Assembly (NCBI GenBank): GCA_046758905.1
Contig: JBHIBC010000002.1
Location: 16,648-80,647 of the forward strand
Reading direction: 5' to 3'
DNA length: 64,000 nucleotides
From: Acidobacteriota bacterium
GTDB lineage: Bacteria > Acidobacteriota > Polarisedimenticolia > Gp22-AA2
Positions 5,859 through 15,906 of this stretch are shown one piece after another. Within the stretch, counting starts at the first letter, position 1. Each line of letters begins with the position of its first letter. The notes beneath the pieces are model-generated. The model was not told the DNA's origin. It saw only the letters and a list, made by a program, of their open reading frames with translations, and did no database searches. The translations under genes and the position numbers were made by a program.

Positions 5859-7085
5859 GTGCTGCTGCTTCTCCCCACGACCACCTACCACGCGCGCGAT
5901 TTCGTCGAGGCGGCGCACCGGCTGGGCGTCGAGACGGTGGTGGGGTCCGAGAGGGCGCAGGCGCTCGAGCCGCTGCAGCCGGGGGGCACCCTCACCGTCG
6001 AGCTGGGCTCCCCCGAGCGGGCCGCCGAGCGGATCGCGGAGTTCGCGCGCCGGCGGCCGCTGCGCGCCATCGTGCCGACCGACGACGGGACCGCGGTGGT
6101 GGCCGCGGTCGCGTCCCGGCGACTGGGTCTCCCGCACAACCCGCCGGAGGGGGCGCGCGCGGCGCGGCGGAAGGACGAGCTGCGCCGGCTCCTGCGCGCC
6201 TCCGGGGTCCGGACCCCCGGGTGGCGCCTGGAGCCGGTGGGCGCCGACCCCGCGGCCGCGGCGGCGCGCGCTGGCTATCCCTGCGTCCTCAAGCCGACCT
6301 TTCTGGCCGCGAGCCGAGGCGTGATCCGCGCCGACGGCCCGGACCAGTTCGTCGCCGCATTCGGCAGGATCCGCGCGCTGCTGGCGCGGTCGGACGTGGC
6401 CCGGAAGGACGCGGACGCGGCGGGCATCATCCTGGTCGAGGAGTTCGTCCCGGGAGCCGAGGTGGCCGTCGAGGGTCTCCTCCTGCGGGGCCGGCTCAAG
6501 GTCCTGGCCATATTCGACAAGCCGGACCCGCTCGATGGCCCCTACTTCGAGGAGACGATCTACGTCACCCCCTCGCGGCTGCCGCCGCGGACGCGGGGGG
6601 CCGTCGTCCGGACCGCGAGAGCGGCGGCGAAGGCGATCGGCCTCGCGGAGGGCCCGGTGCACGCGGAGCTGCGGATCGGCCGGGGCGTCCCGTGGGTGAT
6701 CGAGATGGCGGCGCGGTCGATCGGCGGGCTGTGCTCCCGGGCGCTGCGGTTCGGGACGGGGCTGTCGCTCGAGGAGCTGATCGTGATGCACGCGGTCGGG
6801 CAGGACGTGAGCCGGCTGGAGCGCCAGCGCGAGCCAGCGGGGGTGATGATGATCCCGATCCCGCGCGCCGGAGTCCTGAAGGAGATCGGCGGACTCGCCT
6901 CGGCTCGGGCGGTACCCGGTGTCGTCGACGTGACGATCAGCGCGACGCTCGGAAGGCCGCTGGAGCCGCTACCGGAGGGGTCGAGCTACCTCGGTTTCAT
7001 CTTCGCCCGCGGCCACCGTCCCGAGGACGTGGAGGGCGCGCTGCGCGAGGCGCACCGCAGGCTGTCGTTCGCCATCGAGCCCTAA
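5859..7085 (+). CDS. ATP-grasp domain protein (carboxylate-amine ligase-like)
   Basis: YPCVLKPTFLAASRGVIRAD..., LVEEFVPGAEVAVEGLL and IFDKPDPLDGPYFEETIYVTPS are ATP-grasp B/C-domain motifs. GTG start at 5859 is the first start codon in frame after the gltA stop. Confidence 0.7.
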   Translation: MLLLLPTTTYHARDFVEAAHRLGVETVVGSERAQALEPLQPGGTLTVELGSPERAAERIAEFARRRPLRAIVPTDDGTAVVAAVASRRLGLPHNPPEGARAARRKDELRRLLRASGVRTPGWRLEPVGADPAAAAARAGYPCVLKPTFLAASRGVIRADGPDQFVAAFGRIRALLARSDVARKDADAAGIILVEEFVPGAEVAVEGLLLRGRLKVLAIFDKPDPLDGPYFEETIYVTPSRLPPRTRGAVVRTARAAAKAIGLAEGPVHAELRIGRGVPWVIEMAARSIGGLCSRALRFGTGLSLEELIVMHAVGQDVSRLERQREPAGVMMIPIPRAGVLKEIGGLASARAVPGVVDVTISATLGRPLEPLPEGSSYLGFIFARGHRPEDVEGALREAHRRLSFAIEP

Positions 7086-10093: not shown

Positions 10094-11095
10094 TCAGCCC
10101 CGGGGCCGGCGCGGCTCCCATGGGTACATCGCGGCGACCTGCTCGGCGTACCCGTTGAAGATGCGGGTCGGGAGGACCTCCCCGGTGTCGATCCGCCGCT
10201 CCGTTGCCTGCGACCAGCGCGGGTGCGGCACGTTGGGATTGACGTTCGCCCAGAAGTCGTACTCGTCCGAGGAGTCGCTCCAGAAGGTCGAGGGCCGACG
10301 GGCAACCAGCTCGATCCTGACGATCGACTTGATGCTCTTGAAGCCGTACTTCCAGGGGACGACGAGGCGGATCGGCGCGCCGTGCTGGGCCGGGAGGGCG
10401 TGGCCGTAGATGCCGGTGACCATGAAGGCCAGCTCGTTGCGCGCCTCCTCGAGGGTCAGCCCCTCGTAGTAGGGCCAGGGGTACCAGCTCATCCGCCTCT
10501 GGCCCGGCGCCTGCTCGGGCCTGAGGAAGGCGAGCATCCGCACATGCCTCGCCGCCGAGCGCGGCTCGACGCTGTCGATAAGGGCGCGGAGCGGGAAACC
10601 GGTCCAGGGAACGACCATCGACCAGGCCTCGACGCAGCGGAAGCGATAGACACGCTCCTCGAGGGGAAAGGACCGGACCAGATCGTCGATGTCGAAGGTC
10701 CGCGGTCGGTGGCACAGGCCGGCGACCTCGACCTCCCAGGGTCGCGTCTCGAAGCGCTCCACGTGCCGCCAGACGTCCTTCCGCTCGGTGAACTCGTAGA
10801 AATTGTTGTGCCGTGCCGCGACCATCTCGTCGGTCGGGGGCGCTGCGGCGACGTACTCCGGACGTCGCGGGGCGGGGTAGAGGCCGGGACCTCCGGGGGG
10901 CGGGTCGGGCGGAGCGTCCGACCCGGCGCCGGCCCCTCGCGAGGTGGGCGGGGAACAGCCGAGGAGCAACGCAGCGGCCCCGATCCCCAGTTGGCCCATG
11001 TCCCGCAGAAAGCGGCGGCGGTCCCGGCAGGCCGATTCGGGCGTCGAACACGACTGCGGGATCTCCCACGGGCGCGGCACCCTGATCAGGGGCAT
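10094..11095 (-). CDS. msrP: protein-methionine-sulfoxide reductase catalytic subunit MsrP (YedY-type molybdoenzyme), TAT signal with lipobox-like LLGC
   Basis: TAT motif RRRFLRDMG then AAALLLGC. NNFYEFT, RFRCVEAWSMVVPWTGFPL and PWKYGFKSIKSIVRIEL are typical of MsrP. ATG at 11095 verified. Confidence 0.85.
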   Translation of the reverse strand: MPLIRVPRPWEIPQSCSTPESACRDRRRFLRDMGQLGIGAAALLLGCSPPTSRGAGAGSDAPPDPPPGGPGLYPAPRRPEYVAAAPPTDEMVAARHNNFYEFTERKDVWRHVERFETRPWEVEVAGLCHRPRTFDIDDLVRSFPLEERVYRFRCVEAWSMVVPWTGFPLRALIDSVEPRSAARHVRMLAFLRPEQAPGQRRMSWYPWPYYEGLTLEEARNELAFMVTGIYGHALPAQHGAPIRLVVPWKYGFKSIKSIVRIELVARRPSTFWSDSSDEYDFWANVNPNVPHPRWSQATERRIDTGEVLPTRIFNGYAEQVAAMYPWEPRRPRG

Positions 11096-11276
11096 GGCTC
11101 GACTCCTCGAGAGGGGCGGGCGAGCGGCCCGCCGCCCCATGCGATAGAATACCGGCACCCGCGCTGCCGGGAACAGAGAATCCCGCGGCAGCGCCTCCGA
11201 CCGGGGCCCGGCGCGTCCGCCCCGGCGCCGGTGAGGTCGCGGCCCGGGAGCGCGACGGCCGCGCGGGCGCGCACGC

Positions 11277-12506: not shown

Positions 12507-13220
12507 ATGCCCGGGGCGGAGCAGGTCGCGGAATTCGCCATCTGGTACGTCGTCTTCATCCTCACGCTCACGCTGCACGAGGGAGCGCACGCCCTGGTCG
12601 CGAGGCTCGGAGGGGACGATACCGCCTACCGGGGCGGGCAGGTCTCGCTCAATCCCTGGCCGCACATCCGGCGGGAGCCGTTCGGCACGGTCCTCGTCCC
12701 GTCCCTGACCTTTTTCCTCTCGGGCTGGATGATGGGGTGGGCCTCCGCGCCGTACGATCCGGTCTGGGCCCGACGCTACCCGCGTCGACAGGCGGCGATG
12801 TCGGCGGCCGGACCGGCCGCCAACCTCGTGCTGGCGGCCGCGGCGTTCGCGGCGCTGCGCCTGCTGCTTGGGGCCGGAGTCTTCGTCCCGGCGGACGTGC
12901 TCCGGTTCGGGTCGGTGGTCCAGGCGGCGCCCGGGACCCCCCCCGAGTCGCTGGCGCACGCCCTCGCCTTCGGGCTGTCGGTGGGAATGAGCCTGAACAT
13001 CGTGTTGTTCTTGTTCAACCTGATACCGCTGCCGCCGCTCGACGGCAGCGGCGTCCTGCAGGGGCTGGCGCAGGGCCGGGTGAGCCGCTTTCTGGAGGGC
13101 GTGGCGGCCAGCCCGATGATGTCGCTGGTGGGCCTCGTCCTCGCGTGGCGGATGGCCGGCATCATCCTGCCGCCCGCCTTCGCCGTCGTGGTGACGCTGC
13201 TTTACAGGGGTCTGGTCTAG
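12507..13220 (+). CDS. site-2 protease family (peptidase M50) membrane metalloprotease
   Basis: HEGAH (HExxH) in the first TM helix, a polytopic membrane protein and the LNLIPLPPLDG motif. Confidence 0.85.
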   Translation: MPGAEQVAEFAIWYVVFILTLTLHEGAHALVARLGGDDTAYRGGQVSLNPWPHIRREPFGTVLVPSLTFFLSGWMMGWASAPYDPVWARRYPRRQAAMSAAGPAANLVLAAAAFAALRLLLGAGVFVPADVLRFGSVVQAAPGTPPESLAHALAFGLSVGMSLNIVLFLFNLIPLPPLDGSGVLQGLAQGRVSRFLEGVAASPMMSLVGLVLAWRMAGIILPPAFAVVVTLLYRGLV

Positions 13221-13231
13221 GGAGGTCCTCC

Positions 13232-14668
13232 ATGTCGCGATTCCGCCTGGCGGGGGCGCCGCTGCTCGGCGCGGCGCTGCTCGTCGCCCCGCCGGCTGCT
13301 CACGGCTCCCGAGGGACGCCGTTCGAGGTCGGCAAGCCGTTCCCCGGCCTGGTCCTGCCGTCGGCGGCGGACGGGCGGCCGATGTCGCTGGAGCAATTCC
13401 GCGGCCGCAAGGTGCTCCTGCACATCTTCGCCTCCTGGTGAGCGGGCTGCCGCGTGCACGTGCCCGGGTGGCACGAGGCCGTTCGGTCGCTGGGGATCGG
13501 CGATCGCCTCCAGATGGTGGGGATCCTGCAGGAGCAGCATCCCGATCGGGCGCGGCTGTTCATGCAGTGGAAACGGATGGACTGGCCGCTGCTGGTCGAT
13601 TCCTTGGGCCTGCTTGGGGTGCCGTACGTTCCGATCACGCTGGCGATCGACGAGGGCGGCATCGTGCGCCGGATCGACCCTCCCCTCGCCTCTCCGGACG
13701 AGCTGAAGTCGACCTTCGTGGAGCGGCGGTTTCCGGGCGGCGAGGAAGGGCCGTCGCGGCCGCCGTCCGCCCCCGACCTCGAGGAGCTGTGTGCGGCCGC
13801 CGCCGAAAGGGGCGCGGCGGGGTGGCGCGCTTGCGCGGACGCCCTGTTCCTGTGGGGCGGGCCGCGCCGGCTCGACGAGGCCATCAGCCTGTACCGGAAG
13901 GCGATCGGAGCGGAGCCCGAGGACGGCGCGACCCACTTCCGCCTCGGGGTGGCGTACCGGGCCCGGTACGATTCCGAGGGCCGGCGGCCGGGCGATTTCC
14001 GGAGGGCGGTCGAGGCCTGGGCGCGGGCGCTCCACATCGACCCGAACAACTACATCCGGCGGCGGCGGATCCAGCAATACGGTCCGCGGCTCGAGAAGCC
14101 GTACTCCTTCTACGACTGGGTCGCGCTCGCCAGGCGGGAGATCCGGGCGCGGGGCGAACAGCCCCTTCCTCTGATCGTCGAGCCGGGCGGCGCCGAGTTC
14201 GCCCGTCCGGCCGCGGCCTTCGCTCCGGCCGCCGCCGCGGCGGAACCCGACCCGGAGGGACGGATCGTCCGCGACACGAGGGGCTTCATCCGGGTCGAGA
14301 GCACCGTCGTCCCGCCGGCGATCGCACCGGGCACGGCCGCTCGGGTGCACGTCACGTTCACCCCGAACGCCGCCATCAAGGCGCACTGGAACAACGAGGT
14401 CTCCGACCTGCTGGTCTGGCTGAGCCCTCCGAACGGCTGGCAGGTCGAATCACGGCGCCACGCCTATCCCAACCCGCCGCAGCCCGTCAGCCGCGAAGTC
14501 CGCGAGGTGGAGTTCGAGGCCCGGGCCCCTGAAGGCGCCGTCGCGCGCCGGGCGACGATCTCCGGGTACGCCCTGTACTACGTCTGCGAGGACGTCAAGG
14601 GGACCTGCCTCTACCGCCGGCAGGACCTGGAGATCCCGGTGCGGGTCGGGGCAGCCGAGCGCAGATAG
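13232..14668 (+). CDS. secreted TlpA/ResA-like thioredoxin-fold selenoprotein (UxxC) fused to TPR repeats and a DsbD-alpha-like C-x6-C domain; in-frame UGA at 13439..13441
   Basis: RBS GGAGG then ATG 13232. Signal peptide MSRFRLAGAPLLGAALLVAPPAAHG. ...KVLLHIFASW-TGA-AGCRVHVPGW continues in frame (the track splits it into ORFs ending at 13441 and starting at 13454 in the same frame). Downstream thioredoxin-fold strand (VPITLAIDEGGIVRR), TPR-like helices (LGVAYRARYDSEGR...) and a C-terminal YYVCEDVKGTCLYRRQ pair. Confidence 0.7.
13457..13477 (+). other. candidate SECIS-like hairpin 16 nt downstream of the UGA (CACGUGCC-CGGGU-GGCACGAG)
   Basis: 6-bp perfect stem cgtgcc/ggcacg with a 5-nt GU-containing loop. 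Seen by eye only. Confidence 0.3.
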
Positions 14669-14743: not shown

Positions 14744-14904
14744 ATTGAGACTGCCGCGGTTCCGCGGGCGGCGGCGGGAAAAAGCTTCGCCCGGGTCATC
14801 CAGCGCGCGACGCCGCCCGCGGAAATTTCGCGGGGATCCGGGAATCCCGGGCCCGAATGCGGCCGGGCAGATCTTCGAGGACGTTTCCGCAGGGAGAACG
14901 GCTC

Positions 14905-15906
14905 ATGATGCGCAACAGAGCGAGAAGGTGGAGGTTGCCGGCGGTCCTGATCGGCATACTCGGGTTCTCGGGGACGGGTCGCGAGGCTCTCGCCTACGAG
15001 TCCTATCACGACCCGCTGCAGAACGACAAGGGATACTGCTCCACCTGTCACCCCGGTTTCGCGGGCGGTCGGAGCGATGCGCTCCACGCCCTGCACACGG
15101 GCGGCTCCGACCCCGTCACCGGTGAATGCAGCTTGTGTCACACCGGCTCGGGCCGCGACAACCCGCTGACCATGTGGAGCATCGGCGATGGGAGCGGCAA
15201 CGGCCTCGGCTGCGCCGGCTGCCACGGCCGCATGTATGGGGAGGCGATCCGGGACAACTACCGCGGATTCCCCACCTTCGGCAGGAGCAAGTCCAGCGGC
15301 TACGGCCTGCGCCGGCACCACTTCAACAGCGGCGTGACCGTCTGCCTCGTCTGCCACGCGCCCGAGCCTCCCGGCGGAGCGATCCTGCCGGAGAGCGAGG
15401 GCCCGCCGTACTACGCCAGGAGCGACGTCAGCCTCGGCGGCCGGCCGGTGGACGCCTGCACCAACGAGGACACGGCCAACGACCAGGACGCTGCCGGCCT
15501 CGACAACGACGGCGACGGCCTGTACGAGCTGAACGACGCCGACTGCCTGGAGTGCACCCCGGGCGTCGTCGAGATGTTCGACGGCATCGACAACAACTGC
15601 AACGGCGAGACGGACGAGGTCGAGGGGCTCGGCTTCGGCGAACCCGGGAACCCCGCTCTCCTGAGCTGGAACGATCAGCCGCCGGAGGGGCAGCTGTACG
15701 ACGTCATGCGCAGCGACAGCCGGTTCTTCGCCCCCGACGCGCCGTTCTCCGCGTGCCTGGCGGTCGCCACCCCGACGCATTCCTTGGAGGACACGGAGCC
15801 GGTGCCGCCGGGCAGCGCTTTCTACTATCTGGTCCGCAACACGTTGATCTCCGACTACGGGAACTCGTCCGACGGGAGTCCGCGGCTGTTCACTGTCTGC
15901 CCGTGA
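14905..15906 (+). CDS. secreted tetrahaem c-type cytochrome with C-terminal MopE-like putative metal-binding motif
   Basis: RBS AGGGAG then ATG. Signal peptide. Four CxxCH motifs (CSTCH, CSLCH, CAGCH, CLVCH). C-terminal DNDGDG...DCLECTPGVVEMFDGIDNNCNGETDE resembles the MopE-type Cu/Ca-binding repeat. Confidence 0.8.
   Translation: MMRNRARRWRLPAVLIGILGFSGTGREALAYESYHDPLQNDKGYCSTCHPGFAGGRSDALHALHTGGSDPVTGECSLCHTGSGRDNPLTMWSIGDGSGNGLGCAGCHGRMYGEAIRDNYRGFPTFGRSKSSGYGLRRHHFNSGVTVCLVCHAPEPPGGAILPESEGPPYYARSDVSLGGRPVDACTNEDTANDQDAAGLDNDGDGLYELNDADCLECTPGVVEMFDGIDNNCNGETDEVEGLGFGEPGNPALLSWNDQPPEGQLYDVMRSDSRFFAPDAPFSACLAVATPTHSLEDTEPVPPGSAFYYLVRNTLISDYGNSSDGSPRLFTVCP

Follow-up and report, generated by a model that had tools for sequence, protein, structure and literature searches.

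A conserved in-frame UGA predicts an exported selenocysteine thioredoxin fused to tetratricopeptide repeats and an immunoglobulin-like cysteine-pair domain in Acidobacteriota and other phyla

The window analysed here is a stretch of 64,000 nucleotides from an Acidobacteriota bacterium of the Polarisedimenticolia (assembly GCA_046758905.1, contig JBHIBC010000002.1, positions 16,648 to 80,647 of the forward strand), and the gene in question, at 13232-14668 on the plus strand, is predicted to encode an exported selenoprotein in which a thioredoxin (Trx) domain is followed by tetratricopeptide repeats (TPRs) and an immunoglobulin (Ig)-like domain with a pair of cysteines (Table 1). Its translation comprises 478 codons and has one internal stop only, the TGA at 13439-13441, with ...KVLLHIFASW before it and AGCRVHVPGWH after it (flanks GRKVLLHIFASW-TGA-AGCRVHVPGWHEA). 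The original prediction, made from the letters of this DNA, had noticed two mechanical open reading frames (ORFs), 12737..13441 and 13454..14668, lying in one frame and split by this codon, and the translation bears this out, with no further stop between them. A ribosome-binding site and a signal peptide had also been read at the start of the gene. Both are seen here, since a GGGAGG lies 5' of the ATG, sharing one base (13220) with the stop codon that ends the M50 peptidase gene upstream, and the N-terminus is signal-peptide-like. At NCBI the product is a 404-aa 'hypothetical protein' (P0001) of an Acidobacteriota metagenome-assembled genome (MAG), that is, the part after the TGA alone.

Table 1. 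Features of the predicted selenoprotein gene, in window coordinates (CDS, coding sequence; Sec or U, selenocysteine; bSECIS, bacterial selenocysteine insertion sequence; MFE, minimum free energy)
Feature	Position	Strand	Basis
Shine-Dalgarno-like GGGAGG	13220..13225	+	read from sequence; 6 nt 5' of ATG
Complete predicted selenoprotein CDS, 478 codons including Sec70; TAG stop 14666-14668	13232..14668	+	read-through arrangement conserved in 83/83 loci
Signal peptide MSRFRLAGAPLLGAALLVAPPAAHG	13232..13306	+	orthologues have a signal peptide or lipobox-Cys
TlpA/ResA-type thioredoxin fold, residues ~29-165	13316..13726	+	Pfam and PDB profile matches
UGA, predicted selenocysteine 70, putative attacking residue of W-U-A-G-C	13439..13441	+	conserved TGA; aligned with first Cys of WCxxC
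Putative resolving Cys73 of the W-U-A-G-C motif	13448-13450	+	
Predicted bSECIS hairpin CGUGCC/GGCACG, loop CGGGU, codons His76-Val-Pro-Gly-Trp-His81	13459..13475	+	synonymous freezing, pairing, MFE
Three TPR-like helix pairs, residues ~183-306	13778..14149	+	
Near-invariant motif DPNxYIxRRRIQQYGPRLxKPYxFYDWV, end of TPR module	14039..14122	+	alignments A1, A4
Ig-like β-sandwich, residues ~338-474; invariant HWNNE, YYVCEDVxGxCLYRRQD	14243..14653	+	
Cys452-x6-Cys459 flanking last β-hairpin of Ig-like domain	14585..14608	+	invariant in alignments A1, A4, A6

The comparison of homologous loci carries the case for read-through. Among 185,579 species genomes scanned, 410 have a gene for a relative; 80 loci were retrieved for inspection at the DNA level, and 78 of them and the window make up 79 motif-carrying sequences. 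Four more divergent members (L081-L084) were fetched separately. The codon at the selenocysteine (Sec) position was TGA in 79/79 motif-carrying sequences and in 4/4 of the divergent members. Neither TAA, TAG nor a sense codon was found there among the 83 loci. The W-TGA-x-G-C arrangement and an in-frame signal-peptide N-terminus are kept in 83/83 informative homologous loci, and the carriers span Acidobacteriota, Gemmatimonadota, Verrucomicrobiota, Phycisphaerae, Poribacteria and Neomarinimicrobiota. About 69 codons upstream and 408 downstream of the TGA are conserved in a single frame across the homologues. When the loci were translated in the frame of the match, the upstream sequence in nearly all of them was a signal peptide and F-x-V-G-x-x-F-P…L-P-S-L-x-D-G-x-P…F-R-G-x-K-x-x-L-H-x-[FW]-A-S-W up to the stop, and past the stop it read A-G-C-R-x-H-V-P-G-W-H. 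Judged from these alignments, the arrangement around the UGA is far beyond chance, and it is predicted with high confidence that this is a genuine selenoprotein gene with Sec inserted at the UGA.

Three loci were exceptions to the pattern, namely L021, which reaches a contig end, L039 with a replaced N-terminus and L046 with a 1-nt indel. In L039 (Bryobacterales, ~position 6000) unrelated sequence has taken the place of the Trx domain's N-terminal half, Sec codon included, and in L046 (Gemmatimonadales, ~position 6000) a 1-nt insertion right after the hairpin described below makes a TAA. As the two are long-read MAGs, indel errors, pseudogenes or rearrangements may lie behind these loci. Two contigs of one Gemmatimonadetes MAG (JADFRS01; L032 and L070) carry one copy each, which suggests that some genomes may have two paralogues.

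A small RNA hairpin, CGUGCC-CGGGU-GGCACG, begins 17 nt past the UGA. The original prediction had placed its start at 16 nt; the hairpin and its selenocysteine insertion sequence (SECIS)-like behaviour stand and the distance is corrected. Published criteria for bacterial SECIS elements comprise a loop of 3-9 nt, a stem of 4-16 bp, a G in the first two loop positions, a UGA-to-loop distance of 16-37 nt and an MFE (minimum free energy) of -7.5 kcal/mol or lower (PMC13188914, Fig. 2 legend). The hairpin falls within these limits: the apical loop of 5 nt and the stem of 5-6 bp lie within the ranges, loop position 2 is G in 79/79, the UGA-to-loop distance is 23 nt, and the MFE is ≤ -7.5 kcal/mol in 76/79, with a median of -9.6. 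The GGU of the loop is similar to that of fdhF. In a codon alignment of 76 full-length genes, in which amino-acid columns conserved at ≥85% were compared, 4-fold-degenerate codons elsewhere in the gene have a codon entropy of 1.2-2.0 bits, and the hairpin codons have the lowest entropies of the whole gene (His76 0.45, Val77 0.00, Pro78 0.47, Gly79 0.44 and His81 0.18 bits), Val77 being GTG in 76/76. At five stem positions 100% of the sequences can pair, and at the sixth 84%; a His81→Tyr variant is preserved as a G·U pair. In L083 (~1480-1530) the sixth pair is G-C instead of C-G, owing to His76→Lys (AAG) together with Glu82→Arg (CGC), the sole clear compensatory change observed in the family. 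RNAalifold recovers the identical hairpin. Single-sequence folding of 13436-13500 gave an unremarkable z-score of only -1.08, so the hairpin does not stand out by thermodynamics alone and comparative data are needed; an Rfam scan of the window returned no RNA family and left the hairpin unflagged. It is the frozen synonymous sites in the alignment that mainly argue for a SECIS element, which would be a compact example of dual coding, being overlaid on the invariant HVPGWH peptide.

The thioredoxin domain was recognised by several profiles. With U read as C, residues 33-124 match the Pfam families AhpC-TSA (33.2 bits, threshold 26) and Redoxin (27.9 bits, threshold 26.6). In a comparison of the domain profile with solved structures, the best matches are the pneumococcal surface thioredoxin lipoproteins Etrx (2yp6/4hqz, E 5.6e-14), followed by StoA, ResA, TlpA and CcmG/DsbE, and the U column is aligned with the first Cys of W-C-x-x-C in Etrx, StoA, ResA, TlpA and CcmG. 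The suggestion that the in-frame UGA replaces the first Cys of this motif is thereby confirmed, and with it the reading of the protein as a secreted TlpA/ResA-like thioredoxin, on which Pfam, the structure profiles and the signal peptides agree. We infer by homology that the N-terminal domain has a TlpA/ResA/Etrx-type thioredoxin fold. Orthology to TlpA, StoA, ResA or DsbE was ruled out, because the NCBIfam equivalog scores (TlpA 33.5, StoA 25.8, ResA 20.4 and DsbE 17.9 bits) are all far under the respective cut-offs of 230, 210, 170 and 359. The best NCBIfam model was NF041054, 'ResA-like WAxxUGC motif-containing protein', with 64.7 bits against a cut-off of 300 and an alignment limited to the Trx core (profile positions 84-201 of 354). 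The W-U-A-G-C motif occurs together with an export signal, either a signal peptide or a lipobox: each of the 77 N-termini that were examined resembles a signal peptide, and a lipobox-Cys is present in at least 11. From these N-termini the protein is predicted to be exported, either periplasmic or lipid-anchored.

The polypeptide continues, as had been claimed, into TPRs and a domain with a Cys pair. Pfam gives TPR signals at residues 212-273 and no match for the last ~135 residues. Structures were modelled for the 404 aa after the TGA and for the C-terminal domain alone. In these models the TPR helix pairs superpose on canonical TPR domains as a 3-repeat module of the peptide-binding type, and the most likely role of the module is to hold a partner, whether protein or peptide, or to serve as a scaffold. 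A 28-residue motif at its end (14039-14122, DPNxYIWRRRIQQYGPRLxKPYxFYDWV) is more conserved than the surroundings of the active site, and part of it was modelled with low confidence. The C-terminal domain was modelled as an eight-strand β-sandwich with a predicted local distance difference test (pLDDT) score of 94, in which Cys452 and Cys459 flank the last hairpin. Nowhere is the domain more strongly conserved than at this C-x6-C pair and its YYVCEDVxGxCLYRRQD surroundings, which are invariant across phyla.

The domain had been likened to the α domain of DsbD (DsbD-α), and neither sequence nor fold comparisons bore this out. The profile check proposed for it, a search with the DsbD_N model PF11412, gave no match in 33 members even at E≤10, and 19/33 members weakly match the Ig-like NPCBM_assoc/NEW3 family instead. 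A profile of the domain found nothing below E 0.8 among all PDB sequences, and DsbD-α was not among the top fold matches, which were only generic Ig-like folds and NEW3/NPCBM_assoc-type domains. Since neither PF11412 nor any PDB sequence was matched, the layout is analogous to that of DsbD and SOQ1. The proposal of an electron-relay partner domain keeps its invariant Cys pair and becomes one of analogy, and Cys452/Cys459 are a candidate second redox centre or a structural disulfide. With phmmer the Ig domain was found in 467 proteins among 1.84 billion representatives, and in the best 150 of these it stands at the C-terminus of gene calls of ≤449 aa, save a few that run past the domain, so that these calls have the truncated architecture once more. 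One protein, P0265 (L085 394-1026), is a stand-alone Ig-like domain with no signal peptide in which both Cys are replaced (YYVGENPEGSVLFRRQD), and its gene overlaps a downstream MsrB (SelR) gene by 4 nt. P0265 is the sole Cys-less copy and also the sole copy without the Trx domain and signal peptide.

The family is widespread and has been systematically mis-annotated. The gene is present in at least 410 species-level genomes and, with proteins clustered at 50% identity, in ~470 clusters; its carriers include the complete chromosomes OZ250165.1, OZ252291.1, OZ250179.1 and OZ252293.1. When 5.8 billion protein clusters were searched, 1818 relatives were returned, and all 120 best of them are ~400 aa and cover ~83% of the query, which indicates that all 120 start right after the TGA. 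The database entries seen are all truncated, carry the label 'hypothetical/TPR repeat protein' and lack the signal peptide and the active site. No Cys form was found in the 120 best full-length matches, in the 150 representatives reached through the Ig domain, or at the DNA level in the 83 loci, the four deliberately divergent members included; 76 matches to the Trx domain only gave none either, though none of them spans the U position. In most bacterial selenoprotein families Cys members far outnumber Sec members, GrdA being a noted exception (PMC1794560). The present family is apparently Sec-obligate in the sequences searched, and the lack of a Cys form suggests a chemistry that needs the selenolate, either for speed at low pKa or for resistance to irreversible over-oxidation outside the cytoplasm.

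The genomic neighbourhood was compared by clustering the ORFs flanking the gene across 79 loci. The original prediction had linked the gene to an adjacent tetrahaem cytochrome and to cytochrome c maturation, and this link found no comparative backing, because any neighbour family is shared by at most 7/79 loci and the cytochrome neighbour is not conserved. The ORF concerned (14857-15906, plus strand) begins 188 nt past the selenoprotein gene and has four haem-binding motifs of CxxCH type; its C-terminal half is rich in Cys and Asp (DNDGDG…), and it is a multihaem protein without a characterised family: it had no NCBIfam match, a sub-threshold 19.4 bits with Pfam Paired_CXXCH_1, and no place in the neighbour clusters common to ≥3 loci. 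None of the recurrent neighbours looked cytochrome-biogenesis-like by sequence inspection, without a Pfam scan of them. Upstream, with an 11-nt gap, lies an M50-family (site-2 protease-like, HEGAH) membrane peptidase gene (12507-13220, plus strand); it was considered as CcdA, and this was rejected in favour of the M50 peptidase. The peptidase and selenoprotein genes are probably co-transcribed. The M50 pairing is limited to the closest relatives (L003 and L053, Polarisedimenticolia). The periplasmic methionine-sulfoxide reductase MsrP is encoded 2 kb upstream (10094-11158, minus strand; NF003767, 394 bits) and is not a conserved neighbour. In 5/79 loci, too few for an association, a small membrane ORF resembling MerT (…ASACCLGPL…) is found near the gene; in L042 it is ~1.5-1.9 kb upstream of the Sec codon, and in the other loci it is 2-3 kb off.

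The best overall explanation of these data is probably an exported Sec-dependent reductase with a possible internal redox relay. In the proposed mechanism SelB would bind the small SECIS hairpin 17 nt downstream, and UGA-70 would be decoded as selenocysteine. The U70 selenolate would then attack a substrate disulfide, sulfenate or similar oxidised species, and Cys73 would resolve the intermediate to give an intramolecular selenenylsulfide. The TPR module would hold the partner, the C-x6-C of the Ig domain might be a second redox station that swaps electrons with the U-x-x-C, and a CcdA/DsbD-type membrane electron transporter encoded elsewhere (unlinked) would re-reduce the protein. An extracytoplasmic thiol/selenol oxidoreductase that acts as a reductase is the role we consider reasonably likely from homology, and the intramolecular relay to the Ig-domain Cys pair is a tentative suggestion drawn from analogy. 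It is somewhat doubtful, but conceivable, that unrelated parts have been combined here into a self-contained, soluble two-centre relay resembling DsbD, with the Sec-Trx domain as a 'γ-like' centre, the TPR module for client docking and the Ig C-x6-C as a convergent 'α-like' centre.

Several points weigh against this explanation or parts of it. ARAGORN found no tRNA-Sec in the 64-kb window, none of selA, selB, selC (tRNA-Sec) and selD was found in the window or the 80 loci, and a crude motif scan for SelA, SelB and SelD in these sequences gave nothing. Classical covariation in the hairpin is minimal because the stem hardly varies, the covariation support being a single double change plus a few variants with G·U. 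Any flanking gene family is common to at most 7/79 loci, and the neighbourhood gives no pointer to a substrate or electron donor. The direction of electron flow (reductase versus oxidase) would follow from homology to TlpA, ResA and Etrx only. Homology of the Ig domain to DsbD-α or to the C-terminal domain (CTD) of SOQ1 could not be detected, and disulfides of exported Ig-like domains are often purely structural.

These points bear in different ways on the alternatives. If the TGA were a true stop, between two genes or in a pseudogene, or an assembly artefact, there would be no selenoprotein, and the unseen Sec machinery (by tRNA scan and crude motif scan) would fit, as would the fact that gene callers and NCBI annotate the 404-aa downstream ORF only. 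Such a stop would nevertheless have to be TGA every time, in frame, at the catalytic Cys in the middle of a thioredoxin fold in 83/83 independent assemblies of several phyla, leaving a downstream ORF without signal peptide and active site next to RNA conservation of SECIS grade, and we regard this as extremely improbable. A closer competitor accepts the same selenoprotein with a single redox centre, U70/C73, the Cys pair being merely a structural disulfide and the TPR and Ig domains a module that recognises substrates or partners. It draws on the matches of the domain to generic Ig-like and NEW3/NPCBM_assoc-type folds only, on the missing DsbD_N signal and on P0265, a stand-alone homologue without either Cys, which indicates that the Ig fold does not need the pair. 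That copy, however, is also the one with neither Trx domain nor signal peptide; across phyla, conservation of the domain is highest at the Cys pair and the residues around it, and in the model the cysteines sit at the tips of a surface β-hairpin, as do the redox pairs of the N-terminal domain of DsbD (nDsbD) and the SOQ1 CTD. We consider this single-centre form a serious possibility that falls short of being probable.

Two further readings concern the reaction itself. A selenium-dependent thiol peroxidase, peroxiredoxin (Prx)-like, would have U70 as the peroxidatic residue acting on H2O2, organic peroxides or HOCl in the periplasm and C73 as the resolving one; the best Pfam match is AhpC-TSA, 'Prx-like UxxC' selenoproteins are a recognised group (PMC2398784; PMC13188914), and exclusive use of Sec is compatible with resistance to over-oxidation. 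This activity is nevertheless unlikely, for the W-U-x-x-C motif lies at the N-terminus of helix 1 as in TlpA/ResA and is not the PxxxT/SxxC of peroxiredoxins, and the best solved relatives (Etrx, StoA, ResA, TlpA, CcmG) are all disulfide reductases. Less likely still is an orthologue of CcmG/ResA/TlpA that would act as the reductase of cytochrome c maturation or of Cu-centre assembly for the tetrahaem cytochrome next to it. Its homology to these three proteins and the 4×CxxCH ORF 188 nt downstream in the window would suit it, but the cytochrome and ccm/res genes are absent from the conserved neighbourhood, the TlpA, ResA and DsbE equivalog scores of 18-34 bits compare with cut-offs of 170-359, and neither TPR nor Ig domains are present in CcmG and ResA.

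The exported Sec-dependent reductase would be of interest in several respects. A family model that includes the Sec position would correct all the truncated annotations, and the gene would be an added marker of selenium use for phyla little mentioned in selenoproteome papers; in the papers searched, the Acidobacteria are mentioned twice in a 2006 paper and these phyla otherwise gave no matches. A thiol oxidoreductase that is exported, uses only Sec and belongs to mostly aerobic bacteria would offer a clean system for the question of selenium versus sulfur in an oxidising compartment. If the two-centre relay were true, it would serve aerobic phyla of soil and sea (Acidobacteriota, Gemmatimonadota, Verrucomicrobiota) as a reducing hub of the envelope with an obligate need for selenium, for which sulfur is no substitute, and this would explain the total lack of Cys forms. 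With such a relay, the Trx–scaffold–Ig(Cys pair) design of DsbD, plant SOQ1 and human NHLRC2 would also have been invented independently here.

Thioredoxin-fold selenoproteins with a UxxC motif are an established class, which includes the Prx-like thiol:disulfide oxidoreductases, the TlpA-like cd02966 and the Redoxin family (PMC13188914 Table 1; PMC2398784). The present protein resembles them in the Trx fold, the Sec at the N-terminal position of the motif, the AhpC-TSA/Redoxin signature and the SECIS inside the ORF right after the UGA, and differs in that those families are single-domain, whereas here the Trx domain is fused to three TPRs and a Cys-pair Ig domain. The UxxC families in the GOS (Global Ocean Sampling) data have hundreds to thousands of Cys forms (PMC2398784), unlike the present family, for which none was found; selenoprotein families without Cys homologues are rare, and GrdA is the classic case (PMC1794560). 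NF041054, a curated selenoprotein family, shares the ResA-like fold and a Sec in the active-site motif, but its motif is WAxxUGC and not W-U-A-G-C, and the remainder of the protein differs too. The closest solved relatives, Etrx1/2, TlpA, ResA, StoA and CcmG (2yp6, 4hqz, 3erw, 1st9, 1jfu; E 5.6e-14 to 1e-9), are exported as well, and all of them are Cys-based and single-domain, unlike the multidomain Sec protein described here. The chaperedoxins CnoX/YbbN also consist of a Trx domain with a C-terminal TPR module, and they are cytoplasmic, Cys- or Ser-based and without an Ig domain. The order of a Trx fold and then a TPR module is thus shared with CnoX/YbbN, whereas export, the predicted Sec and the Ig domain are not.

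No paper or NCBIfam model was found that describes a Sec-Trx/TPR/Ig(Cys-pair) protein, in agreement with the original prediction, which did not recognise the fusion as one already described; a full-length annotated member would rank among the best matches of the full-length search, and none did. The nearest parallels in layout are DsbD and SOQ1. SOQ1 carries a Trx domain, a scaffold and an nDsbD-like Cys-pair domain in one protein, and a relay from Trx to CTD has been proposed (bioRxiv 10.1101/2021.03.16.435614). Like DsbD (γ→α) and SOQ1/NHLRC2, the present protein would combine a Trx-fold centre and an Ig-like Cys-pair β-hairpin in one extracytoplasmic polypeptide, and like SOQ1 it has a repeat-type scaffold between the two, TPR here and NHL there. 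DsbD and SOQ1 have C-x5-C pairs and Cys-based centres, in contrast to the C-x6-C spacing and the predicted Sec of this protein, which also has no membrane (β/CcdA) domain of the kind found in DsbD. Although overlap with one of the loosely defined families listed for the known UxxC class is conceivable, we regard it as a new family with a new three-domain architecture inside that class.

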